From: a virus
Strand: one strand, 5' to 3'
Virus record (IMG/VR): IMGVR_UViG_3300044623_000784
Span: 32,001 to 96,000 of that record
Length of the DNA: 64,000 nucleotides
Below the pieces are notes generated by a model. That model was not told the DNA's origin, made no database searches, and saw only the letters and a list, made by a program, of their open reading frames with translations. Within the stretch, counting starts at the first letter, position 1. Every line of letters begins with the position of its first letter. Both the position numbers and the translations under genes were made by a program. Below are positions 6,239 through 63,190 of the stretch, one piece after another.

Positions 6239-6242
6239 GATA

Positions 6243-7929: not shown

Positions 7930-7938
7930 AGTATAGCA
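7930..7938 (-). promoter_or_regulatory. Extended -10 promoter TGCTATACT
   Basis: In the intergenic gap upstream of the Cas4-like gene. Confidence 0.6.
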
Positions 7939-7940
7939 GA

Positions 7941-8527: not shown

Positions 8528-8687
8528 AATCCTTCTTCTTTCTTTTACCTAAATAGACTTTTGTCAAGTGCTTATCTTTGCACATCCAACTTAACATTTT
8601 TTCATCTGCATAGCATCTTAGTGTTGGAACTATAGCCTTGCATGTGTGGCAAACCCATTGACCTTGATATATAGTAAAATTAGCCAT
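8511..8687 (-). CDS. Small zinc-ribbon protein (58 aa)
   Basis: Hand translation MANFTIYQGQWVCHTCKAIVPTLRCYADEKMLSWMCKDKHLTKVYLGKRKKKDFDGEE; CxxC plus CxxxH. Confidence 0.65.
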   Translation of the reverse strand: MANFTIYQGQWVCHTCKAIVPTLRCYADEKMLSWMCKDKHLTKVYLGKRKKKDFDGEE

Positions 8688-47714: not shown

Positions 47715-49748
47715 CTACTTGTTTATTTTAATTTCACAGTAATCTGTTGTGCAGTATGCCTCACCTTGAGCCTCAAGATTATCTACACCGTCGTAAATTG
47801 CAGCAAAATCAATATGCTTTAACTTACCAACATAGGACTCATATTGCTCTTCAGTAATCTGAGTATATGGTTGTTGCGGATATGTGTGATTTCCCATTGG
47901 TAGGAATGAAACTGCCTTTAGTTGTCCCTCGTACATGTGAAGTGCTGGAACAACATGCTTTGACTCTGTTTCCTTATCAAATGACAGTGTTACAGAAACA
48001 CCATTGTCAGACCAGTACTTCTGAGCAGTTGCAGCAAGTGCAATCTTCTCAAACAATGTTACATCCTTTTCAGATCTTGGATGACCTGACTTGATTGGGA
48101 AGTAGACTACTGAGGTGTTTGCTGATACTACGTCATCTTCAATTGTGTACCCTGCTGCTTTGAACAAGTGCATCATTGGATCTGTGTTTCCAAATCGAAC
48201 TGCACGAAGGAAGAAGTTTCCTCCAGGTCCCCAGTGAACCCCAGGAGTTGCACCAGAAAGAATTGAAACTGATCCTGATGGCTTAACTGTTGTTACACGA
48301 ATTGATTCACGAACACAAAGCCATTCTGAATACTGGTGGTCATAGTGACGGATCTTGTTGTATCCCTCATCCATCCACTCACGAACAATTGGCAAACCCT
48401 TTTGATCTGCAAATGATGCTATACCTGTTAGTGACGTACCAATACGACGGTTGCGTTGCATGATACCGTTTGTTTGTGGCCAGTGTGTTGGAACAAGTGT
48501 TACGGTCTTTCCATAAAGGTATGCAAACTTAAGGGTACGCAGGAAGTCTTCCTTAGATTCATGACGATTCAAGTGCACTTCTACAAGTGTACATAGTTCG
48601 TATGATTCCAATGGCTGCTCCGCACATGGGTTAAATCCCATCACACGATAATCCTTACCGTCTGGCGCATCCTTTAGTCGTCCATAATTACGAGCAACAT
48701 CTAGCCAGATAAAACCTGGTTCTCCGTTTTCCGTAATTAAATCTACATAGTCTTCGTACTTTGTTCCTACTTCTGCTGAAATAGAATTGTTTGACATCCA
48801 GGCCCAACCTGGATTGTCTGGGTCAAACGAGTTACGCTCTGGAAATAGTTCTGCATTCTTTAGATTCATAAATGTTTCATCGCCTGCATTACCTAAAGCA
48901 AGAGTTGCTGATCTGCGGACATTGCCTGATACCACGCAGGTACCAATGAGGTTTACTAGGTCTACAATAGCACGAGAGTCTAGTGTTTCTCCGCCTCTGG
49001 AGCCGATTACACGGTCTATCTGGTCGTGCAACTTGATAAGAGGTGCAGGTCCTGATGCAACGCCTCCAAAGCCCTTGATAGGGGCTCCAAGAGGTCTGAT
49101 CAAATCATAGTTAAACTTCTGAATGCTCTGGTTTGCTCTCAAATATGAGTTGATTAGAAGTCTGACTGACTCTACCCAACCTTCACGAGTGTCTGGAATT
49201 TCGAACACCTGTTCTGGTTCTGTTGGGGCATAGATTGAAAAATTCTTATCCTGTCCCACTGTATCAAACCCTACACCAATGCCAAGCATCAATGCATCCA
49301 TAACCCAGGCAAATAGGGCTCCTGGATCATTCTTATCAAGGTCCTTTGTGGAGACCATGGCACAGTTCTGTAGTGCTGCTGAGTTCTTCTTCTCCATAGT
49401 CATAGGAGTTCCAAATGCCCACATACCACGACCTGGTGGTGTCCACTTTAATTCAAACATTCTTTGGAATGCTTCTTGTGCTGACTTCTGAGCCTTATAG
49501 TCATTCCATGGCAAACGGTTTTCTTTAGCATGATTCTTTTGAACTGAGTACATTCCCTCGATTACACGACGACAAACCTCGTGCCATCTTTCCTTAGTTC
49601 CATCTTCCTTCATACGAGAGTAAGTACGAATAAAAGTAATTTCTCCAAGTGAATTTTCTGCTGCATCTTTAAACCCGAATGGGCTTTCTTGGCTTTTGTA
49701 CTTTTCTACGAAGTCCTCTGGAAGTTTAAAACTAAAAAAATCTGACAT
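47715..49748 (-). CDS. nrdJ: Class II (adenosylcobalamin-dependent) ribonucleotide reductase, monomeric RTPR type
   Basis: RTYSR, PPGRG, LQNC, GNVRRSA, GFNPCAEQPL, TTVKPSG, C-terminal CTTDYC. Confidence 0.92.
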   Translation of the reverse strand: MSDFFSFKLPEDFVEKYKSQESPFGFKDAAENSLGEITFIRTYSRMKEDGTKERWHEVCRRVIEGMYSVQKNHAKENRLPWNDYKAQKSAQEAFQRMFELKWTPPGRGMWAFGTPMTMEKKNSAALQNCAMVSTKDLDKNDPGALFAWVMDALMLGIGVGFDTVGQDKNFSIYAPTEPEQVFEIPDTREGWVESVRLLINSYLRANQSIQKFNYDLIRPLGAPIKGFGGVASGPAPLIKLHDQIDRVIGSRGGETLDSRAIVDLVNLIGTCVVSGNVRRSATLALGNAGDETFMNLKNAELFPERNSFDPDNPGWAWMSNNSISAEVGTKYEDYVDLITENGEPGFIWLDVARNYGRLKDAPDGKDYRVMGFNPCAEQPLESYELCTLVEVHLNRHESKEDFLRTLKFAYLYGKTVTLVPTHWPQTNGIMQRNRRIGTSLTGIASFADQKGLPIVREWMDEGYNKIRHYDHQYSEWLCVRESIRVTTVKPSGSVSILSGATPGVHWGPGGNFFLRAVRFGNTDPMMHLFKAAGYTIEDDVVSANTSVVYFPIKSGHPRSEKDVTLFEKIALAATAQKYWSDNGVSVTLSFDKETESKHVVPALHMYEGQLKAVSFLPMGNHTYPQQPYTQITEEQYESYVGKLKHIDFAAIYDGVDNLEAQGEAYCTTDYCEIKINK

Positions 49749-49863: not shown

Positions 49864-50490
49864 TTAGTGAATCCAGTGTTGCGGAACCATAATCTTTTCA
49901 CCACTCTTGACTAAGTGTGCTGTGTGGTGATAAGGTGGTGATGGAGGAAATACAATAATACTTCCTGCTTTTGGCTTAACAAAAAAATCATAAGCATTTT
50001 TATCTGCATTTGCAAAATCTGAATCTGGAGTTGGACCCTGGATAGGACCCTTTGGATCTCTAATTGTAAAAGAGATTTCTCCACCCTCATAATTATCATT
50101 AAGATACATTACAAAAGAAACCTTAAGTCTTTCGTCTCCTTCTTGCTGATCAAAGTGTGCACCCATAAATGTTCCTGCTTGATACTTCTTGATTGGGTAT
50201 TGAGGAAATAGTTTTGGCTCTTCAGTTATACCGTGGGCTGCTGCGTAGTCTCTTGCTACATCATCAAATGCTTTTTGCAAAGTATTATAGATATACTTAT
50301 TTTGTTCATCGGCATCTGGAGTGAGAGCAATAGTCTTATCTGTTCCGTAGACATAGTGCTGTCCGCTACATGCCATCCACTCTCCCCATTCATCCTTGTT
50401 GTCATTTTCAATTGCCTCAACAAGTTTCTTTGGGTCTTCAATTACATTTGTGTAGTAGTAAACCTTTTCTTCAAGTATTTCTCTGTCCAT
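49864..50490 (-). CDS. 2OG-Fe(II) oxygenase, prolyl-4-hydroxylase-like (7 of 7)
   Basis: HFD..YLNDNYEGGEI..FP..HTAHLVKSGEK. Confidence 0.88.
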   Translation of the reverse strand: MDREILEEKVYYYTNVIEDPKKLVEAIENDNKDEWGEWMACSGQHYVYGTDKTIALTPDADEQNKYIYNTLQKAFDDVARDYAAAHGITEEPKLFPQYPIKKYQAGTFMGAHFDQQEGDERLKVSFVMYLNDNYEGGEISFTIRDPKGPIQGPTPDSDFANADKNAYDFFVKPKAGSIIVFPPSPPYHHTAHLVKSGEKIMVPQHWIH

Positions 50491-50501
50491 TTTATATCTC
50501 C

Positions 50502-51164
50502 TTAAAATTTATTCTCTTCATAAAAACCTGTAATTTTTATAAAGCCTACTGTAACATAACGAATTGGTCCTTCTGTTACAAAACGAACTCCGTGTTCATA
50601 TTCTTCATTTCCTGGGAAAAGAAGTAATGTTCCTGGCTTTGGCCTTAAGTCTGAATTTTCTTTATTCTTAAAGAATAGAGTTCCATCCTTATAGTCATCG
50701 TTGATATACAGTATAGCAGCATATTTAATCGATGGGTCTGTGTGTTGGTCTGTGTGAGACTTTAACTCAACTCCAGCCTGCATTCTCTGGAGTGTTCCAA
50801 ATCCAGCAAGTTCTAGAGATGGATCTGCTAAGGTTAGAAGTTTTCCAAGTCTTAACTGAAGAGTTCTGCTAATCTCTTTATCTGTGATGTCTAGGTTTTT
50901 ATCTTCCCAACCTTGAGTTATTTCAAACTTACCTTCAGCAACTAGGTTGTCAACATCATCTCGTCCAAACTTTTCCATACAAAATCTAGCAAGATTCTTT
51001 GTATACTCGATTGACCAGTCTTCATTGGGCGTTATCTTGATTATGTCTAGCAACGTATCTAACTCATTGTCTTTTAAAAAGTCGTTAATAAATAAAACGC
51101 CATCGTGAAATACTTCGGTGTTATATCCTGCATCATCAAACTCTTTTTTTAAAAAGACTTCCAT
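50502..51164 (-). CDS. 2OG-Fe(II) oxygenase, prolyl-4-hydroxylase-like (6 of 7)
   Basis: HTD..YINDDYKDGTL..FP..HGVRFVTEGPIRY. Confidence 0.88.
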   Translation of the reverse strand: MEVFLKKEFDDAGYNTEVFHDGVLFINDFLKDNELDTLLDIIKITPNEDWSIEYTKNLARFCMEKFGRDDVDNLVAEGKFEITQGWEDKNLDITDKEISRTLQLRLGKLLTLADPSLELAGFGTLQRMQAGVELKSHTDQHTDPSIKYAAILYINDDYKDGTLFFKNKENSDLRPKPGTLLLFPGNEEYEHGVRFVTEGPIRYVTVGFIKITGFYEENKF

Positions 51165-51911
51165 TTATAGGTCCTCCACCTTATACTTATTTCCATTAGC
51201 ATCTAACTTCCAACCTTCTTTTAAAAGTTCTTGCCATTCGGCTCTTTCGATTTCTTGCTTGGCTCTAGTCTCTTTCATTTCTGCAGCCCAAGCATCTCTT
51301 AGTTCTTGCGGATAGTCTGACTCTTCTCTGTCATCCCAGAATGATCCAATAGTATATCTCACTCCGCTTGTAATAAGCGAGACTTCATGCATGTTGTTAA
51401 ATCCGCCGTCAAACACTGCAAGCATTCCAACCTTTGGCTGAATCTCAATATTCTGATCTGGAAACCTTAATAGTCCACCTTCAAAGTTATCGTTTAGATA
51501 AAGAAATCCTGCATACCTACTTCTTGTAAATGCCCCAGAGTTTCCTTTCTCGTCAGTATTATCTGAATGAATTCTTGCATATGCTCCAGGTTCCCACTTT
51601 TGTGTGTGGTAACCAATCTTAGAAATTATTTTTGGATCTAAATCATGCACTGAGGCAATTGCTTCTGGCATCTTGCTTTCAATATCTGAAAAGATTGTTG
51701 GCTCTAATCCAGCATCCAGGACTTCCTGATCATTATCTTGTGGAAGAACAGAGGAATATGACTCATAGAATGATATAGGCATCCAAGAGATTTTTCCGTT
51801 GTTTGCCTGAGCGTCTAACGCTTCTATCATTTTTTGACAAGTTTCTTCGTCAATAAAGTTTTCATAAACTACAATATCTTTTGTAATTCTTTTCTTGTTT
51901 TCTAGGTTCAT
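51165..51911 (-). CDS. 2OG-Fe(II) oxygenase, prolyl-4-hydroxylase-like (5 of 7)
   Basis: HSD..YLNDNFEGGLL..HEVSLITSGVRY. Confidence 0.88.
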   Translation of the reverse strand: MNLENKKRITKDIVVYENFIDEETCQKMIEALDAQANNGKISWMPISFYESYSSVLPQDNDQEVLDAGLEPTIFSDIESKMPEAIASVHDLDPKIISKIGYHTQKWEPGAYARIHSDNTDEKGNSGAFTRSRYAGFLYLNDNFEGGLLRFPDQNIEIQPKVGMLAVFDGGFNNMHEVSLITSGVRYTIGSFWDDREESDYPQELRDAWAAEMKETRAKQEIERAEWQELLKEGWKLDANGNKYKVEDL

Positions 51912-52768
51912 TTTATTCTCTTTTCTTTATCGGCATTCATTTTATTAGGATGGGCATCTCTAAACTTTTGCATAATATCTGGCTGCATTTCTTTCCAAAC
52001 ATCTTTTCCAAACTCAGCCTCTTTTTCAAACCACTCATCATCACCAATCTCATACTTCATCCAGTACATTCTGGAGATATACTTCTTTTCTCCTTTGGCT
52101 GGCATGACTCCATGAAGATATACTTGACCTTCTTTTGTTAGTATGTCTGGATGACCAGAAGGAAATATCAAGTAGTCTCCTGCTTCTGGCTTATACATAT
52201 AGGCTTCTCCATCAACAATAAAGTCAATCTCTCCACCAGTATAATCATCATTAAAGTATGTTAAAGCAGTAATTCCAAACTTATATCCTGGGCTGACAAT
52301 TGGCTCTCTAATAAAATCAGAGTGATAGGCCATTGCTAATGGGTCTTCTATATCTGTTTTATATCTTGCTATTGCTGGGCCATTAGTTGTCCACTGATTA
52401 AAAGATTCTCCTTCACGATTTACTAAGATTTTTTCTTTATCAAAATCAACATTATTCTTAAGTATGTAATCTTGTGTGGCTAAATGAAAGTTTTCAAAGA
52501 CTTCTAGCACTGCAACTTTTTGTGCTTCTTCTTTTTCTGTATTTGTTTTTATCTTCCTAATTTCTTCAATACTCATAGTGTGTGGATAATCTTTAAACAA
52601 TGGATTCATGTACTCTCCGAAGTGAGACCACTTTGTCCAAGGACTAAAAATAGCATCTTCGCTTTCGTCTTTTAATATCTCAAGTGTCTTAGTGATATCC
52701 TTAAAAAGATTCTTGTATACAAATATCTTTGGATAAAGTTCAATATGCTCTAGGAGTTTTTCTGTCAT
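51908..52768 (-). CDS. 2OG-Fe(II) oxygenase, prolyl-4-hydroxylase-like (4 of 7)
   Basis: HSD..YFNDDYTGGEI..FPS..HGVMPAKGEKKY; start MTEKLL at 52768 (ATGA overlap). Confidence 0.88.
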   Translation of the reverse strand: MTEKLLEHIELYPKIFVYKNLFKDITKTLEILKDESEDAIFSPWTKWSHFGEYMNPLFKDYPHTMSIEEIRKIKTNTEKEEAQKVAVLEVFENFHLATQDYILKNNVDFDKEKILVNREGESFNQWTTNGPAIARYKTDIEDPLAMAYHSDFIREPIVSPGYKFGITALTYFNDDYTGGEIDFIVDGEAYMYKPEAGDYLIFPSGHPDILTKEGQVYLHGVMPAKGEKKYISRMYWMKYEIGDDEWFEKEAEFGKDVWKEMQPDIMQKFRDAHPNKMNADKEKRIK

Positions 52769-53439
52769 GGTTTTCTGTCTCCTGTGTGCTCTGTTATCTC
52801 CCAGAAGAATGGACATGTGTATCTAATACCACTCTTAATCTCTGTTACTCCGTGGACATAATTCATATCCCCTGGGAAAAAATACGCTGCTCCCTTTTTA
52901 GGTTTAAACTGTACACCCTGTAATGGGAAGTATAACTCTCCACCTTCATAGTCCTCATTTAAATAAAATAGGCTTGAAAGATCATAGTTTGGAAAATCAT
53001 TTGGAAGTCCAGCATCTGGCCCTTCGTGCAGTTCCTTGTCTGCGTGAGGGTTCTGAAACTGGCCTGGAAGCCATCTGACGATAGTTGTCCCAGTAGGGGT
53101 AACCTTTACCTTATAGAACTCTTCAACGATTGGCTTAAGCCTTTGAAACAGGCCTGCGATTACTGGAGCGATTGTTGGATCATTTTTATCTAAAGTTGGG
53201 CTAGTGGCTACTCGATCTTTCCAGTACTCAGAGTCATATACAACTGTTCCGTTTTCGTTAACGTGGCTTTGAGTTACATCCCAGATTGTCAAAGACTTTG
53301 CAGCCTTCTCTAAAAACTCTATTTCTTCTTGAGTCATAAAATTTTCTAACTCAACAATCATCTCTTTACCATTACCAAACCAGCCAGATGGCGTTAGTGA
53401 CGGTTTTCTAATTACAACAGAAGCATCCATTTTGTCCAT
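52765..53439 (-). CDS. 2OG-Fe(II) oxygenase, prolyl-4-hydroxylase-like (3 of 7)
   Basis: HAD..YLNEDYEGGEL..FP..HGVTEIKSGIRY. Confidence 0.9.
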   Translation of the reverse strand: MDKMDASVVIRKPSLTPSGWFGNGKEMIVELENFMTQEEIEFLEKAAKSLTIWDVTQSHVNENGTVVYDSEYWKDRVATSPTLDKNDPTIAPVIAGLFQRLKPIVEEFYKVKVTPTGTTIVRWLPGQFQNPHADKELHEGPDAGLPNDFPNYDLSSLFYLNEDYEGGELYFPLQGVQFKPKKGAAYFFPGDMNYVHGVTEIKSGIRYTCPFFWEITEHTGDRKP

Positions 53440-53445
53440 AATTGA

Positions 53446-53454
53446 ATTATATCA
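53446..53454 (-). promoter_or_regulatory. Extended -10 promoter TGATATAAT, leaderless arrangement
   Basis: TGATATAAT-TCAATT-ATG (6 nt to ATG 53439); heads the run of five oxygenases. Confidence 0.7.
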
Positions 53455-53466
53455 TAGGGTTTTTCC

Positions 53467-53922
53467 CTACAATGTCCTCTCTATCTCTAGTTGTTTTAAG
53501 AATCTTTCTGTGTTGAATCTCCAATTATCTTTTGCAAAAGAAGTAACAATCTTAATACAGACATCCTCATAGTCTTTCTTGTCTAACTTATCCTTCAAAG
53601 AATGCAATGCTTCGACTGTATCAATATAGTTTTGCCTTACAAATGATGGATCTCCTGCGTGGTTTCTTTTTAAAACTTTTGTATTGATTTTCCCAGATGG
53701 CTCATACATAGAAACTGTGAGGTAGTCTTTTGCAAAACCAGCATCTTGATACATTTCATAACCCTCTAAGGCCTGCTCTAGATTATCAAAGGATATAATA
53801 GATCTTACAGGAGACTCTCCATCTCTTGAAACAGTTATCATGTAATGACCAACCTTTCCTTCTTTAGAACTTTTGATGTAGTCATTAACTATATCAGAGT
53901 GTGTTGGATTTAATTCATTCAT
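53467..53922 (-). CDS. Hypothetical protein inside the oxygenase cluster
   Basis: 151 aa, ATGA-coupled to the upstream DUF6065-like gene; no motif recognised. Confidence 0.7.
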   Translation of the reverse strand: MNELNPTHSDIVNDYIKSSKEGKVGHYMITVSRDGESPVRSIISFDNLEQALEGYEMYQDAGFAKDYLTVSMYEPSGKINTKVLKRNHAGDPSFVRQNYIDTVEALHSLKDKLDKKDYEDVCIKIVTSFAKDNWRFNTERFLKQLEIERTL

Positions 53923-54635
53923 GATCTGCCCTGAGTTGTTTGATCTTCTACAATAAGTTTTAAAGTCTTTACTTCATGAGACCCTAGAGACTCTTGCTTT
54001 TCGTTAACAGCATTTCTATACCAGTCAGTCCATTCTCCAGTAGAGTTTAGAACTTGGGCTGCTTCACCATATGAGATGTTTGCTTCTACCCTTTTTCTGT
54101 CCTCATCTTTATAGTCAACCATTTTTATAACTGTGTTATTTAGTTGTGTCAAAGATATTGGAATAATTGTTGCAACTGGAGTTCCTGCTTTAATGACTAT
54201 TCTTTTATTTGCTGTCTTTGCCTTAAGTGCTAAAGGGAAAGGGTTGTCATAGAAAGATGTGCTAATTAGTGAAGACATTGTCTCAAACTCATCACTAAAA
54301 TAGTTTACTGGATTTATAGCAAACATGCTAACGTCAGTGTCTGTTCTAAATATCAATCCAGTGTCCATACTTATTGATGATTGTCCTCTACCAGAATACG
54401 CTCTTTCTGGACTAAATATTTTAACACGATCAGGAGTTTGATCGTTTATTCCGTCCCACTCAAACTCTATGTCTTCTTTGCAGGAAAGGCTATATCCAAC
54501 TACGTTTGCTTGCGTTACTGGAAAGCATCTGTAGGCATGATTTTCTGAAGTAGCGTCCATCCAGTCTCTTTTAATAGACATAGGATTAATTTCAAATATG
54601 CAACCTGGAGCCTTTTCTACTAAGATGTTATACAT
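53919..54635 (-). CDS. DUF6065-like protein
   Basis: RDWMD..HAYRCFPVTQANVVGY..IKAGTPVATIIP..DWYR pattern. Confidence 0.7.
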   Translation of the reverse strand: MYNILVEKAPGCIFEINPMSIKRDWMDATSENHAYRCFPVTQANVVGYSLSCKEDIEFEWDGINDQTPDRVKIFSPERAYSGRGQSSISMDTGLIFRTDTDVSMFAINPVNYFSDEFETMSSLISTSFYDNPFPLALKAKTANKRIVIKAGTPVATIIPISLTQLNNTVIKMVDYKDEDRKRVEANISYGEAAQVLNSTGEWTDWYRNAVNEKQESLGSHEVKTLKLIVEDQTTQGRS

Positions 54636-55291
54636 TAGTCTGTATCCGCAACATACATTTCTGGAGTGTGGAACTTTTTATTGTAGTCAAGCATAGTAAC
54701 AATAGAGTATTTTGTTCCTGAATGTACTGGCATTGCACGATGAGGATACATGAATGTTGAAGGGAATATAAATAGATCTCCAGCCTCTGGCTTTACAGTC
54801 AAACCTTGTAATCTAAAGTTTAGTTCTCCACCATCGTAATCATCATTTACATAAGCAACAAGAGACACTGTACAGTTGTATGAGAAGCCGTGATCGTGGT
54901 GCTCTTGGAAGTGCTGGCCTGGTCCATACTTAATAAAGTTAAACGCTTCCCAGTACTTTAGTTCATGAATGTTGTGGATCTTGCAATAGTCTTCAACTGC
55001 TGGTGCCTGTGCGTCGTATACATCTTGCCACAGTTCCTGAAGTTTTAAACTTGTGGGGCTTTTATCATACTCTATATCTGTTTTCTTAAACTTAAAATCA
55101 TTACAATCTCTATAATCTGGCATTAACTGCTTGTAGCCCACATACGCAGGTAGCCAAGCATATCCTGTGGTATCTCCTACAGGCTTAAGATTAGACTCTA
55201 GTCTATTAATAACATCAATTTCTTTTTTGATTACACCCTTGTAGCAAAAGATTCCATTGCCAAGGTCTTGCTTATCTGTCCATGTTTGCAT
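54635..55291 (-). CDS. 2OG-Fe(II) oxygenase, prolyl-4-hydroxylase-like (2 of 7)
   Basis: HHD..YVNDDYDGGEL..FPS..HRAMPVHSGTKY. Confidence 0.9.
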   Translation of the reverse strand: MQTWTDKQDLGNGIFCYKGVIKKEIDVINRLESNLKPVGDTTGYAWLPAYVGYKQLMPDYRDCNDFKFKKTDIEYDKSPTSLKLQELWQDVYDAQAPAVEDYCKIHNIHELKYWEAFNFIKYGPGQHFQEHHDHGFSYNCTVSLVAYVNDDYDGGELNFRLQGLTVKPEAGDLFIFPSTFMYPHRAMPVHSGTKYSIVTMLDYNKKFHTPEMYVADTD

Positions 55292-55301
55292 TATGTATTC
55301 C

Positions 55302-56081
55302 TTATCTATATTCTCTTCTTGACCAAACTTTGTTCTTATATACCCCGCCGTCTGGCTGTCTATAAGTTTTCATATTAGTAACCATTCTATCATAAATTGT
55401 AACCTGATCCAATATTTCTATTTCATGATCCCAGTTTTCTCTTTTAAAAGGAAGAAACTGCATGTATGGCGTTCCTGCTGGTATCAAGCCTTCCCAACCT
55501 TCGGCAACGAAAAATGGAAAAGTTCCTGGTATAGAAACTTTATCACTATCAATAATTCCAGAAGTATTTAGGAATGGCAAATCAAATCTATTCATAGGAG
55601 TCATAAACAAAGCACTATAGCCTTCTGGAAGAGAGACTTCCCAGTCTGGGTACCATGCAAAATGGTGTTGGTAAAACCCCTTTGGATGTTCAAACTGTGG
55701 CATTGGCGGTCTTTTTGTAACAAAGTCTTTATATTTTGGATCACTAATTTTGACATCAATTGTGCCCTGAGCATTTTTAAAAAACTCTAAGTCACATGGA
55801 GTTTTTAAAACATATCCAGTTATAAAAGCATCAAGTATCGCTGGACAGGCTTTCCAGGTAGGAATTCTTCCATAATCATCATCGGTTCCTTCTTTAGGAA
55901 AAGGACAAGTTCCTTTGGGTGCTTTATAGTATTCTCCATTTGGCATTTTTGCAAATCTGTCAGCATCTTTATACCATTCTGGAATTTCATTTTGAGTTGA
56001 AGTTGGTACAGATTTGCTGTCTTTGTTTAGCCATGCTCTGAATGATCTAAAGGTTGCTATATTGTATTTTTCATCACTCAT
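55302..56081 (-). CDS. DUF6065-related protein
   Basis: IPEWYK..TWKACPAILDAFITGY..PEGYSALF..SGIIDSD..IPAGTPYMQFLPFKRE. Confidence 0.6.
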   Translation of the reverse strand: MSDEKYNIATFRSFRAWLNKDSKSVPTSTQNEIPEWYKDADRFAKMPNGEYYKAPKGTCPFPKEGTDDDYGRIPTWKACPAILDAFITGYVLKTPCDLEFFKNAQGTIDVKISDPKYKDFVTKRPPMPQFEHPKGFYQHHFAWYPDWEVSLPEGYSALFMTPMNRFDLPFLNTSGIIDSDKVSIPGTFPFFVAEGWEGLIPAGTPYMQFLPFKRENWDHEIEILDQVTIYDRMVTNMKTYRQPDGGVYKNKVWSRREYR

Positions 56082-56791
56082 TAGTGACTCAGTTCATTAA
56101 TATCTGTCATAATGACTACACAATATTTTGTGCCTGACTTCATTGGAAGTGACGCATGCTCATAAATATAGTTTGAAGGAAATACGGCAATATCTCCTAC
56201 TCTTGGCTTATATACCAAATTATCTAATCTTGGAAACTTTAAGTCTCCGCCTTCGTAGTCATCATTAATATAGATTACAGCAGAGACAGTGCAGTTATAT
56301 GCTGGTCCATGGTCAGCATGAATATTAAAATGAGTTCCTTCTCCTTCATACTTAACAAAGTTGAATGCTTCATAATATACAACATTGATTCCCCAATATT
56401 GTGCATAATCATCTATACACATTTTTAACTTTTGATATATTTCTTCATGAAGATCAATTAGTTCTGCATTATGCTCATCTTTTGGCCCTAGATTTTCTTG
56501 CTTATATTTAAAATCTACACAATCTCTTGCTTTTTTAATTGGTGTTGTTGAGTTTGTTACTTGGGCTTCTGACCATTTGTATTTACCTCCATGAGATAAG
56601 TTGGATTCAAGAACTCCTATGTATCTGTTTGCGTCTTCTAAAGAAAACGTGTCATGATATACATGTAAGCCCAAACCGAGGTTTTCAACACTAACGGTCT
56701 GATTCATTTGTCTTGTTGGAATTCTATTTGATGCTGTCTCTGATCTATCTTTTGTAAACCAGTGGTTTGAGTTTTCATCATATGCGCTCAT
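56081..56791 (-). CDS. 2OG-Fe(II) oxygenase, prolyl-4-hydroxylase-like (1 of 7)
   Basis: HAD..YINDDYEGGDL..FPS..HASLPMKSGTKY. Confidence 0.9.
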   Translation of the reverse strand: MSAYDENSNHWFTKDRSETASNRIPTRQMNQTVSVENLGLGLHVYHDTFSLEDANRYIGVLESNLSHGGKYKWSEAQVTNSTTPIKKARDCVDFKYKQENLGPKDEHNAELIDLHEEIYQKLKMCIDDYAQYWGINVVYYEAFNFVKYEGEGTHFNIHADHGPAYNCTVSAVIYINDDYEGGDLKFPRLDNLVYKPRVGDIAVFPSNYIYEHASLPMKSGTKYCVVIMTDINELSH

Positions 56792-56817
56792 GGAAACTAC
56801 CTTTCTTTGTTATAACC

Positions 56818-56826
56818 ATTATAACA
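56818..56826 (-). promoter_or_regulatory. Extended -10 promoter TGTTATAAT
   Basis: In an AT-rich gap, followed by a near-copy GGTTATAAC and SD GAAAGG. Confidence 0.65.
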
Positions 56827-56903
56827 TATACCTATAAAAATATGCCTAAAACATTGAGTGGTAACTCTTTTGCTTTAGACATATATTATTAAGATTTTTT
56901 ATT

Positions 56904-57335
56904 TTATTCAACTAGAGTAAGGTTTGTTCCGTCCCAATTAAAGGTTTTTCCAACCTTATCAATTGGTTCAGTTTCAGTTTTTACTAATATTGTTTCTCCA
57001 TCAAAGGCTGCGTCAATCATTTCTATGTTAGAAGAATCTTTTGCAGCCGTAATTGAAAATACAACTTTATTGTCAGATAAGAATACATATCTATTAATTC
57101 CATCTAAATATTCCTGATCTACCGCTATATTAAGGTTTTCTCCAACAAATGAATTTCCGTCCCATACTGCCCCTCTTGTTGCAGAGGTTTTGTGTAGCGA
57201 TGCATTCATACCAATAACTGGAAGACCAGCATCAAATGCTGCATCTATAACACTTGTATCTGCTAGGGAATAAGGATCTATTTGATCTATTGCGTCCCAG
57301 GTGTTGTCACCATTTTTTGTTAATATAACGTACAT
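56904..57335 (-). CDS. Small internally duplicated protein (two WDG-ended halves)
   Basis: MYVILT..IDAAFDAG..GAVWDGNSF and YVFLS..IDAAFDGE..TFNWDGTNL; SD AAGGAG. Confidence 0.75.
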   Translation of the reverse strand: MYVILTKNGDNTWDAIDQIDPYSLADTSVIDAAFDAGLPVIGMNASLHKTSATRGAVWDGNSFVGENLNIAVDQEYLDGINRYVFLSDNKVVFSITAAKDSSNIEMIDAAFDGETILVKTETEPIDKVGKTFNWDGTNLTLVE

Positions 57336-57357
57336 AAAGTGTATCTCCTTTTATTAT

Positions 57358-57366
57358 AGTATAGCA
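57358..57366 (-). promoter_or_regulatory. Extended -10 promoter TGCTATACT
   Basis: Just after the stop of the Pro/Phe-repeat gene. Confidence 0.6.
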
Positions 57367-57372
57367 TGTTCA

Positions 57373-58746
57373 TTAGTAGAAGCAGTTTCCACAGCATGGT
57401 GCTGTTGATGGGCAGTTCCACCATGGTCTATAACATGCTGGTCCGCAACCGCCACCGCCACCTGTGAAGTGTGGGAAGAATGGGAAGAACGGTGGGAAGA
57501 ACGGGAAGAATGGTGGGAAGAATGGGAAGAACGGGAAGAACGGTGGGAAGAACGGGAAGAACGGTGGGAAGAATGGGAAGAATGGGAAGAACGGTGGGAA
57601 GAACGGGAAGAATGGTGGGAAGAATGGGAAGAACGGGAAGAACGGTGGGAAGAACGGGAAGAACGGTGGGAAGAATGGGAAGAATGGTGGGAAGAACGGT
57701 GGGAAGAATGGGAAGAATGGTGGGAAGAATGGGAAGAATGGAGGGAAGAATGGGAAGAACGGTGGGAAGAACGGTGGGAAGAATGGGAAGAAAGGTGGGA
57801 AGAATGGGAAGAAAGGTGGGAAGAATGGGAAAAATGGCGGGAAGAATGGAGGGAAAAATGGCGGGAAGAATGGAAAGAATGGGAAGAATGGAGCAATAGT
57901 AGTTACGCTAGTAGATTCAGCAGATGTTCCAGATGTTCCGTTAGCGTTTATTGCACGAACAGTATAGGTCTGTGCAGTATTTGCTTCTTGGGTAACTTCT
58001 ACAGATGTTGCTCCTGTTGAATTGGTCTTACCATCTGATGCTGCCCAAACATAAGAAGTAATTGCACTTCCTCCATTTGATGGGGCTGTCCAAGAAACTG
58101 TATCCTTGTCTACTCCTGCTGTTGCTGTTGGGGCAGATGGAGTTGCTGGAACTGTTGTTGCTGTTATGGCGTTTGTTGTTGTTGCAGTAGATGTTCCGTT
58201 GGCATTTGTAGCAGTTACGCTAAATGTATAAGTAGTTCCACCTGTAAGAGATTGTACTGTTAGTGGTGATGCTCCAGATACTGAAGAAGCATTGTATGAA
58301 GATACTGTTTTTCCTCCGTTTACAGAAGATGCTGTAATTGTTGCTGCGCCATTTCCAAAAGCCCGTCCTGTTCCAACATTTGCTGCTGAAGCAGTAGGTG
58401 CTTGTGGTACAGTTGTTGCTAATACTCCAGCAGAAGCAGCAGAGGATGCTGAAGTTCCTGCAGCGTTAGTCGCTGTTACTGTAAATGTTGGTGTTGCTGA
58501 TGAGGAAATACCAGTTACAGTTAAAGGAGAAGATGCTCCAGTTGCTGTTTGTCCTGTGCTTGCTGTTACTGTAAAGGATGTTGCATTAGGGGAAAGGGCT
58601 GGTAAAGAAAAAGATACAGATACTGCAGCATCATTAAATGCTCTACCTGTTCCAAGGTCTGTTCCAACAACATTGATTGGTGCTAATGGCTCCAAAAAGT
58701 CATTTGACGCTTGGGACTTCTTACCTATTCTCTTACCTGATGCCAT
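57373..58746 (-). CDS. Fibronectin type III-domain protein with 140-aa Pro/Phe-only tract and Cys-rich C-terminal peptide
   Basis: Three FN3-like units (FTVTATNAAGTS, YTFSVTATNANGTS, VSWTAPSNGGSAITSY..YTVRAINANGTS); residues 286-425 contain only P and F; tail GGGGGCGPACYRPWWNCPSTAPCCGNCFY; SD AGGAG. Confidence 0.85.
   Translation of the reverse strand: MASGKRIGKKSQASNDFLEPLAPINVVGTDLGTGRAFNDAAVSVSFSLPALSPNATSFTVTASTGQTATGASSPLTVTGISSSATPTFTVTATNAAGTSASSAASAGVLATTVPQAPTASAANVGTGRAFGNGAATITASSVNGGKTVSSYNASSVSGASPLTVQSLTGGTTYTFSVTATNANGTSTATTTNAITATTVPATPSAPTATAGVDKDTVSWTAPSNGGSAITSYVWAASDGKTNSTGATSVEVTQEANTAQTYTVRAINANGTSGTSAESTSVTTIAPFFPFFPFFPPFFPPFFPPFFPFFPPFFPFFPPFFPFFPPFFPPFFPFFPPFFPFFPPFFPFFPPFFPPFFPFFPPFFPFFPPFFPFFPFFPPFFPFFPPFFPFFPFFPPFFPFFPPFFPFFPFFPPFFPFFPPFFPFFPHFTGGGGGCGPACYRPWWNCPSTAPCCGNCFY
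57472..57891 (-). repeat. Coding repeat: 21 PFF plus 19 PPFF units and a final P
   Basis: Plus strand GGGAAGAAY / GGTGGGAAGAAY 9- and 12-mers over 420 nt; a 51-nt higher-order unit occurs about 4 times near the 3' end. Confidence 0.95.
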
Positions 58747-58779: not shown

Positions 58780-60636
58780 TTACGCTGTCAAGTCGCCAAA
58801 GACAACCCATGTATTTGCTGCTCTTTTAAGGAGAGTTGCAGATGACCAAGTTGTACGAAGTTTCAAGCCAGGTGTTGCATTAACTGTAACTGTTCCTGAT
58901 ACTGGGGCAATTGTTACTTGTCCCGCTCCAGTTTGGAGAATATCAATTGAAGTTCCAATTGGGAAGTTTAGTGTTGCATCTGTTGGAATTGTAAGGGTAA
59001 TTGGTGATGCTGAACCCATTTCAATTAGGTCGTCTCTTTCAGTTAGTGATGAAAGTGTGTATGATGCTGTCTTTTGTGAAATTGGGGTTAAAGAATCTAC
59101 CTTTAATCCAAGGTTAGTTGTTACTGTTGCTGCAAAGTTTTCGTCATCTCCAAGTGCTGCAGCAAGTTCATCAAGTGTGTTAAGGGCTGCTGGTGCTCCT
59201 GTTAATAGTGCATTAACTTGTGCTGTTGCATCTGCGATTGCTTCTGCCTTTGCAGTTGCGATTGCTTGTGACTGTGCAGTAGATACTGGCTTTGATGTAT
59301 CTGCTGTATTATCAACATTTCCAAGGCCTAGAGTAGTCTTTGTTACTGCTGCTACATCTGCTGTTGTTGCAAGTAATGATGTGTCTGCAATACCGTGAAC
59401 ATTTGTTGTGTCATTATTGTGTGTTGTAACTGCAGCGTCTGCATATACCTTTGTAGCAAGTGCTGCTGTGTCAGCAATGCCGTGAACGCTTGTAGTATCA
59501 GAGTTGTGTGTACCAATCTCAGTTCCCACATATGTTGTTGTTGCTACTGTTGAGTCAATATCAAAAGCATTTGTTGCGGAGTTGTAATCAAGTCCAACAC
59601 CAGCAAGGAGTGATTGATCTACTGCTGAGTTGCCAACTGCTGTATCAACATAATCTTGGGTTGCAAGAAGTGTAGTATTTGCAATTCCATGGACATTTAG
59701 TGTCTCATTATTGTGATCTGTTAAGTCTGAAAGGTAAGCAAGGTTTCCTGTGTTTGAAATTCCATGAACATTTAGTGTCTCACTATTATGATCTGTAATG
59801 TCTACAACATAGGCAAGGTTTGCTGTATTTGAAATTCCATGGATATTTTCTGTAAGTGCAGCATGTGTTGACACTGCTGTATCTGCATATGTTTTTGTAG
59901 CAAGGTCTGCGGTGTTTGTAATTCCATGAACACCTAATGTGTCATCTGAGTGTGTTGATACCGCTGTATCTGCATAATTTTTTGTTGCAAGATCTGCGGT
60001 GTTAGCAATACCGTGAACATTTTCTACATCGTTGTCATGTGTTTGAACTGCTGTGTCAGCATAAGTCTTTGTTGCGAGTGCTGCAGTGTCTGCGATTCCA
60101 TGAACTTCTGTTGAATCTGATTGGTGTGTTGACACTGCTGAGTCAGCATAATTCTTTGTAGCAAGATCTGCTGTATTAGCAATACCATGAACATCTGATA
60201 TATCTGAGTTATGTGTTGTTACTGCATTTCCAGCAAAAGTCTCTGCTGCTGTTTGTGCTGTAGAAACATTTGTTGTAGTTGCAAGTAGGGCAGTGTTTAC
60301 AATTCCATGAACATTTGTTGTCCCATTGTGCTGGTTGATAGATCCTGCAATGCTGGCTGCAATATTAGTAAAGAATGCTGGGTCATCACCGATTGCTGCT
60401 GCCAATTCATTAAGGGTGTCTAGCGTTCCTGGAGCAGCATCTATAAGGTTGGAAATTGCTGCATTAAGTTCTGTTGCGTTAGTAAAATATGTTAATGCTG
60501 CCCATGCTGAGGAGCCATTACCCATTTTAAACTTACTTGTATCGGTTTCAAATCCGATCTCGCCTGCTGCTAATACTGGGTTTGCAGCCGTCCATTGTGC
60601 TGCAGTACCTCTGCGCTGTTGCATTCTTGTTGCCAT
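58780..60636 (-). CDS. Fibre-like protein with Mtd-type N-terminal domain and His-repeat shaft
   Basis: MQQRRGTAAQWTAANPVLAAGEIGFETDT N-terminus; 10 H-x(6-7)-HGI repeats; two LDTLNELAAA-type motifs; C-terminal NFPIGT..QTGAGQV..WVVFGDL domain. Confidence 0.75.
   Translation of the reverse strand: MATRMQQRRGTAAQWTAANPVLAAGEIGFETDTSKFKMGNGSSAWAALTYFTNATELNAAISNLIDAAPGTLDTLNELAAAIGDDPAFFTNIAASIAGSINQHNGTTNVHGIVNTALLATTTNVSTAQTAAETFAGNAVTTHNSDISDVHGIANTADLATKNYADSAVSTHQSDSTEVHGIADTAALATKTYADTAVQTHDNDVENVHGIANTADLATKNYADTAVSTHSDDTLGVHGITNTADLATKTYADTAVSTHAALTENIHGISNTANLAYVVDITDHNSETLNVHGISNTGNLAYLSDLTDHNNETLNVHGIANTTLLATQDYVDTAVGNSAVDQSLLAGVGLDYNSATNAFDIDSTVATTTYVGTEIGTHNSDTTSVHGIADTAALATKVYADAAVTTHNNDTTNVHGIADTSLLATTADVAAVTKTTLGLGNVDNTADTSKPVSTAQSQAIATAKAEAIADATAQVNALLTGAPAALNTLDELAAALGDDENFAATVTTNLGLKVDSLTPISQKTASYTLSSLTERDDLIEMGSASPITLTIPTDATLNFPIGTSIDILQTGAGQVTIAPVSGTVTVNATPGLKLRTTWSSATLLKRAANTWVVFGDLTA
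59390..60330 (-). repeat. About 25-29-aa repeat H-x(6-7)-HGI-x-(N/D)T-x-x-LA, 10 copies
   Basis: Examples: HNSDISDVHGIANTADLATKNYADSAVST and HQSDSTEVHGIADTAALATKTYADTAVQT. Confidence 0.85.
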
Positions 60637-60689
60637 TTATATCTCCTTATGGGGGCTGCCCATTAACTTATCTTATTATAACCCCTGTT

Positions 60690-61139
60690 TTAATTGAAGT
60701 TATCTACTACACTGCCGCCATCGAATACAACTGTCCAAACTGTTGAGTCTGGTCCACCTGCATCCAAACCTACACCCAATGGGCTGTTGAATGATCCACC
60801 TTCATAGAACTGAGATACTATGAAACCAGTTCCATCAATTGCGGTATCGTGAATGTGCTGTGGTAAATTATTTGTATCATCAATAGTTGCTTGGGTATAC
60901 CAAGAACCATCGTAATAAAAATTAACTCTGTTTGTTAGAGTGTCTAACCACATTGTTCCATTAGTTGGTGAAGAAGGAGCAGTTGCGCCTACGGCCATTG
61001 AACGACTATCGACATACTCCTTGGTTGCTGCATGGGCATTAAGAGTTGGGGCTCCTACTGTTACTGCATCTCCGAATGTACCGCCGTTTGCTACGACTAA
61101 CCCATTCTTGACCTTAAAGTCTTTATCGACTGTTGCCAT
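60690..61139 (-). CDS. Putative virion fibre-associated protein
   Basis: MATVDKDFKVKNGL N-terminus, HAATKEYVD, APSSPTNGTMWLDT fibre motifs. Confidence 0.65.
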   Translation of the reverse strand: MATVDKDFKVKNGLVVANGGTFGDAVTVGAPTLNAHAATKEYVDSRSMAVGATAPSSPTNGTMWLDTLTNRVNFYYDGSWYTQATIDDTNNLPQHIHDTAIDGTGFIVSQFYEGGSFNSPLGVGLDAGGPDSTVWTVVFDGGSVVDNFN

Positions 61140-61174
61140 TTACTGCTCCTTCTTCCAACTATTTTTATTTTTTA

Positions 61175-63190
61175 TTACTTAAGAAGTGTACCCATAACAG
61201 TAACTGTTGAGTCATTGTTAGCGGTTGTTACCTGTAGTTGTACGTTTGCTCCTGAAATACCTGCTGAAACTGATGACGCTGAGCCATTTGTTCCAACAAT
61301 TCCGTATTCAGTGATTGCAATGTTATCTGAAGAGTCAAGTGTCAAAAGGACCTTTGATATTTCAGTATGTGTTCCGTAGGCAACCTTTACAAGGTATTCT
61401 GCTGAACGGTAGTCAGCCTTTGCGAAGGCGTGTGCTACTTGAATTCCTGCTGTTGGTGCTGAAAGTGTTGCTGCAACCTGCTTAGCAACTGAGTTTAACT
61501 CAACTGCTGTAAAGTTTGGAACAACTGCTTCAAGAGCGTCTACTGCACGAACATCTGTGAAGTACTTGTTTGTTGTACCTTCTACAAGGTCATCAGTATC
61601 AGAATCTGCTACACCGTTTTCTGCGGTAATAGTAAGTCCTGAACCATTTCCTGTAATTGTGATATTAGTCTTTGTAGCACCAACCAAAAGGTCTGCTGCT
61701 GAAGTCTTGGCACGAGCATCTGTGAAGTAAAGGTTTGTAGAACCCTCTTCAATGTCATCTGTGTTAAGTTCATCAATTGCATCGCCAATTGTTCCACCTA
61801 CAGCGTCAATTGCTCGCTGGTTTGTGAAGTAAAGGTTTGCTGAACCTTCTTCAATATCATCTGTGTCAAGTGCGTCTGCGTGATCAATTGCTGCTTGCTG
61901 TGCAAGACCAATTTCTGTGCCTGTCTTATATGCTGACCAAACTTCTGCTGAAGAAGATGATGCATCATTGATCAAGTCGTCTGCGTAGTCTTTTGCATCT
62001 TGTTCTGCTGTATCAGCGTATGACTGGTAAGCAGTTGTGATTAAGCCTTCACGAGTGTCTGTGTATGCCTTAGCATCGTCTTCTGCTGTGTTAGCATAAC
62101 CCTGTGCTGCTGCATCAAGAGTTGAAATTTCTCCATCTACATAACCCTTTGTTGCTGCATGTAATGTAAGTGTTGGTGCACCTGGAAGAACCAAGTCTCC
62201 AGTCATTGTATCGCCAGACTTTGCTACTCTACCAGCAACGGCTGCTGCTGCATCTGTAGCATAGTTTGGATTATCTGCAATTGCTGCAGCCAATTCATTA
62301 AGTGTATCTAGAAGTTCTGGTGCTGAATCTACAAGATCTGCAACCTTGCCGTCTGTGTAAGAGTTAGCGTCTGCAATTGCTTGACCCTTAGCAGTTGCAA
62401 TAGCAGAGTTACGGTTTGTAACTTCTGTGTTAATTGCTGAAGTAATTGCTGAGTTACGATCTGTAACTTCTGTTGCAATCTTTCCATCTGTGTAAGTGTT
62501 TGCATCCGCTTCTGCTGTATTAGCCTTTGAGGTAGCGTCTGCTGATGCTGTTGAAATTGCATCTGCTTCTGCTTGATCTGCATAGCCTTGTGTTGCAAGA
62601 ACATCTGCACCCCACTTGACTGAAGAACCTGCTGCTGGAGTAAGAACGATATGAGAATCAGAATTGATTGTCATTGCTCCTGCGCCAGTGAAGTTAAGTG
62701 TATCTCCAATAGTCTTGTTTGTTAATGTTTGTGTGTTGGTTGTTCCAACTACCGCACCTGTTGCACCGTGTGCGACTGTAGCATTTTCGTGATCTGTAAG
62801 ATCTGATGCTACTGCGTTTGCTGCTGTAGTTGCTGATCCTGCTGCATCATATGCAGCGTTAGTTGCATCAAGTGCTCTTTGGTTTGTGAAGTAAAGGTTT
62901 GAACCTTCTGCAAGATCTCCAGTGTCATGGTTTGAAATATCTGATACTTGACCAGTTACGTCACCAGTTAAATCTGCTGTAATTGTTCCTGCAGCAAAGT
63001 TACCATTAGCATCACGCTTTACAACTTTGTTTGCTTCGTTAGCAGATGTGGCTGTTCCGCCAATAAGATTAACTACGTAATCTTGATCTGCTTGCTTCTT
63101 TGTAAGAACGTCAAAACCGTTAACTGTCGCTGTTGTACCTTCAACGATTAAACCACTCTTAATTTTAAAATCTTTATTTACTGTTGCCAT
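61175..63190 (-). CDS. Putative virion fibre/structural protein with TDDxxEG..NLYFT..RA repeats
   Basis: Four EG(S/T)..YFT..RA repeats, APELLDTLNELAAA, GDTMTGDL..HAATKGYVD, C-terminal YRSAEY..EYG domain. Confidence 0.7.
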   Translation of the reverse strand: MATVNKDFKIKSGLIVEGTTATVNGFDVLTKKQADQDYVVNLIGGTATSANEANKVVKRDANGNFAAGTITADLTGDVTGQVSDISNHDTGDLAEGSNLYFTNQRALDATNAAYDAAGSATTAANAVASDLTDHENATVAHGATGAVVGTTNTQTLTNKTIGDTLNFTGAGAMTINSDSHIVLTPAAGSSVKWGADVLATQGYADQAEADAISTASADATSKANTAEADANTYTDGKIATEVTDRNSAITSAINTEVTNRNSAIATAKGQAIADANSYTDGKVADLVDSAPELLDTLNELAAAIADNPNYATDAAAAVAGRVAKSGDTMTGDLVLPGAPTLTLHAATKGYVDGEISTLDAAAQGYANTAEDDAKAYTDTREGLITTAYQSYADTAEQDAKDYADDLINDASSSSAEVWSAYKTGTEIGLAQQAAIDHADALDTDDIEEGSANLYFTNQRAIDAVGGTIGDAIDELNTDDIEEGSTNLYFTDARAKTSAADLLVGATKTNITITGNGSGLTITAENGVADSDTDDLVEGTTNKYFTDVRAVDALEAVVPNFTAVELNSVAKQVAATLSAPTAGIQVAHAFAKADYRSAEYLVKVAYGTHTEISKVLLTLDSSDNIAITEYGIVGTNGSASSVSAGISGANVQLQVTTANNDSTVTVMGTLLK

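Follow-up and report, generated by a model that had tools for sequence, protein, structure and literature searches.

A proline/phenylalanine-tract protein gene followed by P4H-like oxygenase and DUF6065 genes: a candidate virion-protein tailoring module of a phage

Of the genes that lack an explanation in aquatic phages, tandem genes for 2-oxoglutarate (2OG)-Fe(II) oxygenases are some of the most common, and they are usually listed as metabolic. The one detailed published proposal for tandem phage dioxygenases (Iyer et al. 2010, PMC2938197) concerns Syn9, a cyanophage of Synechococcus. Its cluster, in which 10 dioxygenases in tandem are accompanied by two halogenases and by a conserved-Cys protein of the dUTPase fold, was suggested, in the accessible text of that paper, to serve metabolite synthesis; the same text predicts that linked dioxygenases in bacteria hydroxylate collagen-like and tail-collar proteins. 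Another described system is the prolyl 4-hydroxylase (P4H) of the chlorovirus PBCV-1, which, according to the accessible part of a review, turns Pro-containing peptides into hydroxyproline (Hyp) peptides in vitro (PMC7019647). In this study, we analysed a 64,000-nucleotide stretch of viral DNA (hereafter the window), corresponding to positions 32001-96000 of the 118,084-base phage record IMGVR_UViG_3300044623_000784. In this window, a fibre block is closed by the gene for a 457-amino-acid (aa) repeat protein carrying a pure proline/phenylalanine (P/F) tract, followed by an array of 11 genes that includes seven P4H-like oxygenase genes and two DUF6065-type genes. Two known kinds of system are varied here: P4H enzymes paired with repeat proteins rich in Pro, and the tandem dioxygenase array of the Syn9 type. 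The best available explanation, in which we place moderate confidence, is a substrate-plus-hydroxylase module with proline rather than phenylalanine as the target.

As in the window, the Syn9 array (gp41-gp54; Iyer, Abhiman, de Souza, Aravind 2010) lies directly behind a tail-fibre block, and in both loci tandem classical 2OG dioxygenases are combined with a dUTPase-fold Cys protein. Comparison of Syn9 gp43 with the DUF6065 profile by hhalign (probability 91.3, E 9.6e-7) suggests that gp43 is a distant DUF6065 relative. Syn9 differs in having two tryptophan halogenases and a JmjC enzyme, none of which was found in the eleven array genes by Pfam scans, and in having a fibre block without a Pro-rich protein, whereas the Pro-rich tract protein is the constant neighbour in the system of the window. 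The PBCV-1 enzyme vCPH (PDB 5c5t/5c5u), the closest solved relative, resembles the array enzymes as a small virus-encoded P4H-type 2OG oxygenase. However, it is the product of a single gene of a eukaryotic virus, without a DUF6065 partner or an adjoining dedicated repeat gene, whereas in the window seven paralogues and two DUF6065 genes stand directly behind the Pro/Phe tract. Long Pro-rich repeat shafts are made by P4H-type enzymes in the hydroxyproline-rich glycoproteins (plant extensins and Chlamydomonas wall proteins) and in collagen. The likeness to these systems lies in the Chlamydomonas P4H and the collagen P4H/P3H, which were among the oxygenase matches, and in a GlcNAc-transferase family gene nearby; unlike them, the tract is a two-letter P/F sequence without Gly-X-Y or Ser-Pro, and belongs to a bacteriophage in a bacterial cytoplasm. 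The tract also shares its tripeptide unit with synthetic tripeptides of the sequence Pro-Phe-Phe or Hyp-Phe-Phe; Pro-Phe-Phe tripeptides assemble into stiff helical-like sheets via a Phe zipper, and Pro hydroxylation alters the material properties (PMC8113556). This likeness, between free tripeptide crystals and a 139-residue polymer within a protein, is an analogy only.

An initial annotation of the window, made from its letters alone, had described a tract of only Pro and Phe, a Gly5 linker, and a 6-Cys tail in the last gene of the fibre block. This was borne out; by our count, the tract comprises 139 residues (residues 286-424), of which 80 are Phe and the other 59 Pro, and which fall into 21 PFF and 19 PPFF units. 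The 33-residue tail after the tract, PHFTGGGGGCGPACYRPWWNCPSTAPCCGNCFY, contains Gly5 and six Cys. In the N-terminal 285 residues, fn3 (4.5e-9) and PKD_6 (8.5e-6) domains were recognized by Pfam, and the internal repeat VGTGRAF suggests a third Ig-like unit. The codons of the tract were CCA 38, CCG 17, and CCT 4 for Pro, and TTC 77 and TTT 3 for Phe. All of the 62 variant third positions were silent in the P/F frame, the other five frames gave mixed residues, and the tract was kept in the same frame in 181 open reading frames (ORFs) of related contigs. Because the variants are synonymous in the P/F frame only and the frame is kept in the relatives, the sequence comparison indicates that the tract is real and selected as protein, and not a product of chance. 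An artefact of another frame was ruled out by the same synonymous-only variants. A structural role for the tract is plausible. No Gly-X-Y triplets were found, since the 139-residue tract is devoid of Gly, and a collagen-like identity was accordingly rejected. As a side observation, codon use in the tract was unusual: TTC accounted for 77 of 80 Phe codons, compared with TTC 56 and TTT 241 in six long window genes, and CCG for 17 of 59 Pro codons, compared with 5 of 258 in the same genes. This odd codon use may avoid long T runs.

All 11 genes downstream lie on the same strand, and the seven oxygenases with the HxD..H and Y-x-N..G motifs that had been annotated were confirmed by PF13640 and by alignment. 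The PF13640 scores were 27.7-56.7 bits against the Pfam cut-off of 27, with ox4 barely above it. H131, D133, and H184 were invariant in the alignment of the seven sequences, and the Y-x-N..G motif was common to all. In addition, all seven have a K/R 9-11 residues past H184, which is taken as the basic partner of the 2OG carboxylate. The profile built from the seven sequences detected the Bacillus anthracis P4H (2e-12) and the PBCV-1 P4H (6e-9), whereas Tet-like enzymes were reached at just 3e-4; P3H1, PKHD-type hydroxylases, PHD2, and lysyl hydroxylase were also found. Fold comparison was carried out with ox5, the model of which (predicted local distance difference test, pLDDT, 88.1) has a double-stranded beta-helix with PBCV-1 vCPH as the best match (E 1.3e-10), followed among its closest relatives by the Chlamydomonas P4H, PHD2, P3H1, and B. 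anthracis P4H. The matches listed at ranks 1-50 were prolyl/PKHD-type hydroxylases or unnamed 2OG oxygenases throughout. The seven-sequence profile and the ox5 model agree with the earlier description of the enzymes as prolyl-hydroxylase-like, and support the seven array enzymes as predicted P4H-like 2OG-Fe(II) oxygenases.

Both of the genes initially called DUF6065-like could be placed in or near that family. The product of 53919-54635 matched PF19541 with 95.8 bits against a cut-off of 26.6 (3.6e-27). The other product, dufB (55302-56081), had no Pfam match at E <= 0.01, and direct BLASTP against the DUF6065 protein was weak (E 0.03); it shares PHROG 7084 with the DUF6065 protein, and hhalign against an alignment of 52 DUF6065 sequences gave a probability of 97.4 (E 1.3e-11, 200 columns). 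By these profile comparisons, dufB is a distant DUF6065 relative rather than a Pfam-level member. The model of the 238-aa DUF6065 protein (pLDDT 95.5) showed a dUTPase-like beta-barrel with a C-terminal helix. In the VIA comparison, it matched 15 chains of the dUTPase family with Z 8.2-11.2 and dCTP deaminases with Z 6-7, and Foldseek gave E 5e-5; the protein had no dUTPase Pfam match at E <= 0.01. Judging from the model, DUF6065 shares the dUTPase fold only and is not classed as a dUTPase. An assignment as a cupin or oxygenase was rejected, as the structure comparison gave a dUTPase-like fold. C37 was invariant in the 52 sequences. Among 777 family representatives (E <= 0.001), 13 of 17 long ones examined were fusions with a C-terminal oxygenase closest to ox5/ox3, and other long forms were fused to sulfotransferases, TPR repeats, or DUF6932. 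These fusions argue that DUF6065 and the oxygenase belong together. A prediction of the complex of ox5 and DUF6065, run without controls, gave a score of 0.00, a value that carries no weight in either direction.

The linkage of the tract gene with these enzymes was examined among relatives of the locus. An oxygenase gene was located within 3 kb downstream of 134 of the 141 P/F ORFs that had at least 3 kb of downstream sequence. Likewise, a P/F ORF was present 2.2-4.7 kb upstream in 30 of 30 loci found through DUF6065 that had at least 5 kb of upstream sequence. The order of fibre, Pro/aromatic repeat protein, and array was kept in at least 43 of 77 more distant loci, despite an altered repeat. 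These results support the repeat protein and the oxygenase/DUF6065 genes as a conserved unit, in line with the cluster described in the initial annotation.

The co-occurrence that the annotation had anticipated was also found in separate lineages. In another DUF6065 subfamily, a lone oxygenase-DUF6065 pair lies directly 3' of genes with 20-35 consecutive prolines. These loci were collected from IMG/VR with alignment A3, the single query P0133 having given nothing; for 48 loci with at least 3 kb of upstream sequence, we counted same-strand ORFs with a 20-35-residue Pro tract at most 4 kb upstream. Such an ORF was present in 20 of the 48. All 20 were among the 29 loci with an oxygenase gene, whereas none of the 19 loci without an oxygenase had a tract, and no Pro-tract ORF was found downstream of DUF6065 in 67 loci. 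Several of the polyproline loci are near-duplicates, and the independent events are fewer than the counts, with perhaps four or five protein architectures. The Pro-tract ORF mostly ended about 550 nt before the DUF gene, a gap in which the oxygenase gene alone fills the space. The polyproline-tract proteins were either small (230-370 aa) or fibres of 900-1800 aa, and other linked genes carried (TPPPP)n, or (PPVV)n with a Cys-rich tail. Polyproline is a classic substrate or ligand of the P4H-type enzyme class. Because the linked tracts across lineages are polyP, (TPPPP)n, (PPVV)n, (A/S)PPGFF, and PFF, the shared element is proline and not phenylalanine. Of the two targets considered in the initial annotation, Pro and/or Phe, proline was thus upheld, and nothing pointed to hydroxylation of Phe.

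The tract protein itself was variable on both sides of the tract. In IMG/VR, 503 stretches encode relatives of the DUF6065 protein and at least 120 contain the PFF DNA pattern. Among 197 loci, 181 ORFs with at least four P/F units had 139 different C-terminal tails. A crude rule assigned 59 of these to Cys-rich knots and 8 to Hint-like domains, scored 4 as open or absent, and left 68 others, including GGNKWSPRAT-type short peptides, amphipathic tails, and Ig-like domains. The N-terminal parts were mostly Ig-like, of about 198 aa; some measured 116 aa, and giant ones 959-1561 aa. A wider protein collection added forms with PASTA domains, with Gly-rich sequence, and with Listeria-Bacteroides repeats. 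Given these variable N-terminal bodies and hypervariable tails, the tract behaves, as far as sequence comparison can tell, as a stalk that joins the body of the protein to its tip. Tyr often replaces Phe in the tracts of relatives, and in deeper relatives the repeat is altered to (A/S)PPGFF or to Cys-bearing PFFPNFCPSFC units. In some relatives, a Hint/intein-like domain of about 170-210 aa, with a Cys right behind the tract and an ...HNK end, replaces the Cys knot (Table 1). PF14890 was precomputed on P0013 and P0026, and the Hint_2 match of L049 (21.9 bits) was below the cut-off of 28.4. Such a tip suggests self-cleavage or ligation at the C-terminus of the tract. The window protein, with its 33-residue tail, has no Hint/intein-like C-terminal domain.

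We propose that the locus serves a freshwater actinophage as a module for tailoring a virion protein. In the last protein of the fibre block, a long Pro/Phe stalk would connect the Ig-like domains with a small tip of hypervariable sequence. The tip would be a 6-Cys knot in the window; in relatives its place would be taken by a different Cys knot, by a short peptide, or by a Hint-like domain that cleaves itself. During late gene expression, at least some of the P4H-like oxygenases would act as hydroxylases on stalk prolines, and probably also on further Pro-containing fibre proteins that this phage encodes. The DUF6065 proteins, with their predicted dUTPase-like fold and conserved Cys, may be partners of the oxygenases. 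By analogy with extensins, hydroxyproline-rich glycoproteins, and collagen, hydroxylation could turn an extremely hydrophobic, aggregation-prone tract into a stiff, more polar extended rod, and glycosylation may follow. The initial annotation had called the cluster RiPP-like (ribosomally synthesized and post-translationally modified peptide) in layout. This holds for the layout, since candidate tailoring enzymes adjoin the candidate substrate gene, and not for a leader-core precursor, because the candidate substrate is a 457-aa multidomain fn3/PKD protein inside a fibre gene block. The proposal would give the oxygenases a concrete candidate substrate, encoded beside them and recurring across lineages with different Pro-rich sequences. 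If true, a virion protein of a bacteriophage would for the first time have a hydroxyproline system dedicated to it, DUF6065 would receive its first role, and peptide-materials research would gain a two-letter Pro/Phe polymer of natural origin. Our literature search brought up no publication that deals with prolyl hydroxylation in phage virions, with DUF6065, or with P/F tracts.

Several observations weigh against this proposal. No oxygenase was found within 3 kb of 7 of the 141 P/F ORFs, mostly second-site P/F proteins, which usually lack an adjoining oxygenase (those of L120 and L150 have one), and in L166 (2432-5406) the P/F protein is directly followed by the ribonucleotide reductase gene, the array being missing at the site. 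The linkage within the clade amounts to few independent events because it reflects mostly one inherited gene order (ribonucleotide reductase 81-100% identical), and outside the clade an upstream Pro-tract ORF was missing from 9 of the 29 loci with an oxygenase-DUF pair. In 46 complete arrays, neither the presence of orthologues nor the number of oxygenases tracked repeat length, Tyr, or Gly, and the oxygenase number rose just weakly with Pro count (rho 0.30, p 0.03, uncorrected). Apart from this weak link, the co-variation of arrays with repeat composition suggested by the initial annotation was therefore absent, and its idea that the oxygenases divide PFF and PPFF contexts between them found no support. 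The seven paralogues are left without explanation by the favoured account, and the dUTPase-like fold of DUF6065 would also fit a nucleotide-related role. Among the known systems, Syn9 gp32-gp40 contain no Pro-rich protein (at most 20% Pro per 20-residue window). The PBCV-1 precedent is weaker than had been claimed, as the accessible part of the review states that the role of the enzyme is unknown and that hydroxyproline was not detected in virions (PMC7019647).

A more far-reaching form of the proposal is tentative, and we regard it as possible rather than probable. Here, phages would make their own collagen- or extensin-like material, a (Hyp)-Phe-Phe polymer forming a rigid rod of about 40 nm with aromatic zippers and bearing a tip for host recognition, either a hypervariable Cys knot or one released or ligated by Hint. 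Specialised prolyl hydroxylases would write the pattern, each with a DUF6065 partner recognising polyproline-type helices. If so, the orphan 'auxiliary' 2OG oxygenases of aquatic phages would gain a structural virion role instead of a metabolic one.

It is unlikely, although several observations speak for it, that the targets of the oxygenases are not the P/F tract but proteins of the host or other proteins of the phage, such as translation factors, ribosomal proteins, or the mucin-like and collagen-like fibres. The PDB relatives include a Bacillus P4H that modifies EF-Tu (title of 5v7y) and PKHD-type hydroxylases, the genome encodes other Pro-bearing fibre proteins and two more oxygenases far from the tract, and the number of paralogues, seven, hints at several substrates. 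In several lineages, the gene that stands closest to the enzymes, and does so most repeatedly, is nevertheless a Pro-tract gene, and additional fibre substrates would be compatible with hydroxylation of the tract rather than opposed to it.

We give still less credence to the view that the array is a secondary-metabolite or small-peptide pathway, with the fibre-side site merely permissive and the P/F protein an unrelated structural protein. As described above, this was proposed for the Syn9 dioxygenases, which have no Pro-rich neighbour and among which our comparison places gp43, a distant DUF6065 relative; the fusions of DUF6065 to sulfotransferases and TPR domains and the oxygenase repertoire that does not track the repeat would also fit. 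On the other hand, genes for a non-ribosomal peptide synthetase, a halogenase, a transporter, or a precursor peptide are missing from the window, unrelated lineages link the oxygenase-DUF pair to polyproline genes on the upstream side only (20/29 versus 0/19 and 0/67), and the accessible text of PMC2938197 itself predicts collagen-like and tail-collar hydroxylation by linked bacterial dioxygenases. A nucleotide or DNA module, with DUF6065 as a dUTPase-like nucleotide enzyme and the oxygenases as base hydroxylases, is very improbable: the fold similarity, a weak Tet_JBP match of ox5 (19.8 bits, below the 34.9 cut-off), and the adjoining ribonucleotide reductase gene are outweighed by the stronger profile match to P4Hs than to Tet-like enzymes, by the missing dUTPase Pfam match, and by the upstream polyproline genes, which it would leave unexplained. 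Hydroxylation of Phe (beta- or ring-), alone or with that of proline, is equally hard to credit, for although Phe makes up 80 of the 139 tract residues and is often Tyr in relatives, the linked genes elsewhere carry Pro tracts without aromatics (polyP, TPPPP, PPVV), the enzymes resemble prolyl and lysyl hydroxylases, and F-to-Y is an ordinary conservative substitution.

The features of the locus are summarized in Table 1. Every gene of the region is on the - strand, and the order of transcription is fibre block, repeat protein, array, class II ribonucleotide reductase, and a 1250-aa structural protein. Within the array, the order is unk143, ox7, dufB, ox6, DUF6065, unk151, ox5, ox4, ox3, ox2, and ox1, of which unk143 and unk151 had no family in the Pfam and PHROG comparisons and gave only phage hypothetical clusters in the protein atlas. 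Overlaps of 1-4 bases were found at several gene junctions. As listed, the ox4 ORF shares 52 bases with ox5; translation could equally well begin at Met17, next to the stop codon of ox5, which would give a 286-aa protein in the usual coupled arrangement. A promoter/terminator scan of the region was not above shuffled sequence (25 versus 33 expected; 8 versus 8.2), and operon boundaries were therefore not called.

Table 1 Features of the fibre-array locus in the window and Hint-like tips in relatives
Feature	Position	Strand	Basis or remark
Upstream fibre block (671-aa fibre, 149-aa protein, 618-aa fibre with Mtd_N), closed by repeat protein	58780..63190	-	order conserved in relatives
Fibre-region repeat protein, 457 aa: Ig-like (fn3/PKD) 285 aa, Pro/Phe tract, Gly5, 6-Cys tail	57373..58746	-	Pfam; homologues at same position in relatives
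Pure Pro/Phe tract, 139 residues, candidate hydroxylation substrate	57475..57891	-	variants synonymous in P/F frame only
unk143, 143 aa, fast-evolving	56904..57335	-	24-62% identity in relatives; found in part of them
ox7, P4H-like 2OG-Fe(II) oxygenase, 236 aa, first enzyme of array	56081..56791	-	PF13640 8.1e-11; triad
dufB, divergent DUF6065-type, 259 aa	55302..56081	-	phrog_7084 2.5e-30; hhalign vs DUF6065 profile probability 97.4
ox6, P4H-like oxygenase, 218 aa	54635..55291	-	PF13640 4.8e-15
DUF6065 protein, 238 aa, dUTPase-like beta-barrel (model), invariant Cys37	53919..54635	-	PF19541 3.6e-27; model pLDDT 95.5
unk151, 151 aa	53467..53922	-	phage-only clusters; absent from part of relatives
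ox5, P4H-like oxygenase, 224 aa; type fused to DUF6065 elsewhere	52765..53439	-	PF13640 4.9e-9; model best match PBCV-1 vCPH
ox4, P4H-like oxygenase, 302 aa as listed; missing in part of relatives	51908..52816	-	PF13640 27.7 bits
ox3, P4H-like oxygenase, 248 aa	51165..51911	-	PF13640 8.6e-9
ox2, P4H-like oxygenase, 220 aa	50502..51164	-	PF13640 7e-11
ox1, P4H-like oxygenase, 208 aa, last gene of array, precedes class II ribonucleotide reductase	49864..50490	-	PF13640 8.5e-11
Hint-like tips in relatives	L049 3973-5286, L101, L115, L141, L150, L169, L182; proteins P0007, P0013, P0026, P0029

The class II (B12-dependent) ribonucleotide reductase gene (window 47715-49748) sits between the oxygenase array and the structural genes; its product was 81-100% identical across relatives, and the fibre and oxygenase genes were far more variable. 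The initial annotation had seen no glycosyltransferase, which holds within the window; the same genome encodes a PF11397 GlcNAc transferase (1.7e-31) 1.6 kb past the window end. The enzyme that attaches sugar to hydroxyproline in Skp1 presumably belongs to PF11397 as well. A second fibre-plus-tailoring cassette lies beyond the window end on the - strand (L213, genome 96001-112000, at 1621-9878). Its mucin-like fibre of 916 aa is rich in Thr, carries one AAPPFFPYFAPA (PPFFPYF) motif, and has a Cys-rich tail. The other genes of the cassette encode a Cys protein of 76 aa, a radical SAM/SPASM enzyme, the PF11397 GlcNAc transferase, an NAD epimerase, and a collagen-like protein of 243 aa. From its gene content, the whole region looks like fibres plus tailoring enzymes.

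With respect to the host, a WhiB-family gene (PF02467, 2.8e-11) was found at L371 567-848 (-), corresponding to genome 22567-22848. WhiB is used as an actinophage marker in the accessible text of two freshwater actinophage papers (PMC6802176, PMC10202952), the main text of which, as far as accessible, does not mention oxygenases. The WhiB gene points to an actinobacterial host of this lake phage and marks it as an actinophage, and the PASTA forms of the tract protein fit a Gram-positive wall. In the INPHARED phage collection, the DNA and three proteins of the region had no match, no cultured relative was found, and a fused DUF6065-oxygenase protein matched only cyanophage oxygenase domains. 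A search of 185,579 bacterial species genomes gave the PFF DNA pattern in 15 stretches, of which nine were single chance matches and six were true long tracts on short phage-like contigs in metagenome-assembled genomes (MAGs) of inconsistent taxa. Since the true tracts were confined to phage-like contigs, these genomes offered neither a cellular P/F protein family nor a host clue. Phage contigs of the clade (L199, L202, L208, L209, L210, and L211) occurred in MAGs labelled Luteolibacter, Bacteroidetes, Beijerinckiaceae, Acidimicrobiaceae, and Chitinophagaceae, which is likely the result of mis-binning.

The structural region of the window holds a 3089-aa ORF (25182-34451) and a 1454-aa ORF (20232-24596). 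Finally, the (PPVV)n protein of another phage lineage (L285 17-589) has a Cys-rich tail, ...CTSYDVSIDCCGSTGC..., that resembles the tail of the mucin-like fibre, ...CTSFDVSIGCCASTGC... (L213 5012-7762), and by this resemblance the tip module appears to be common to different stalk types.

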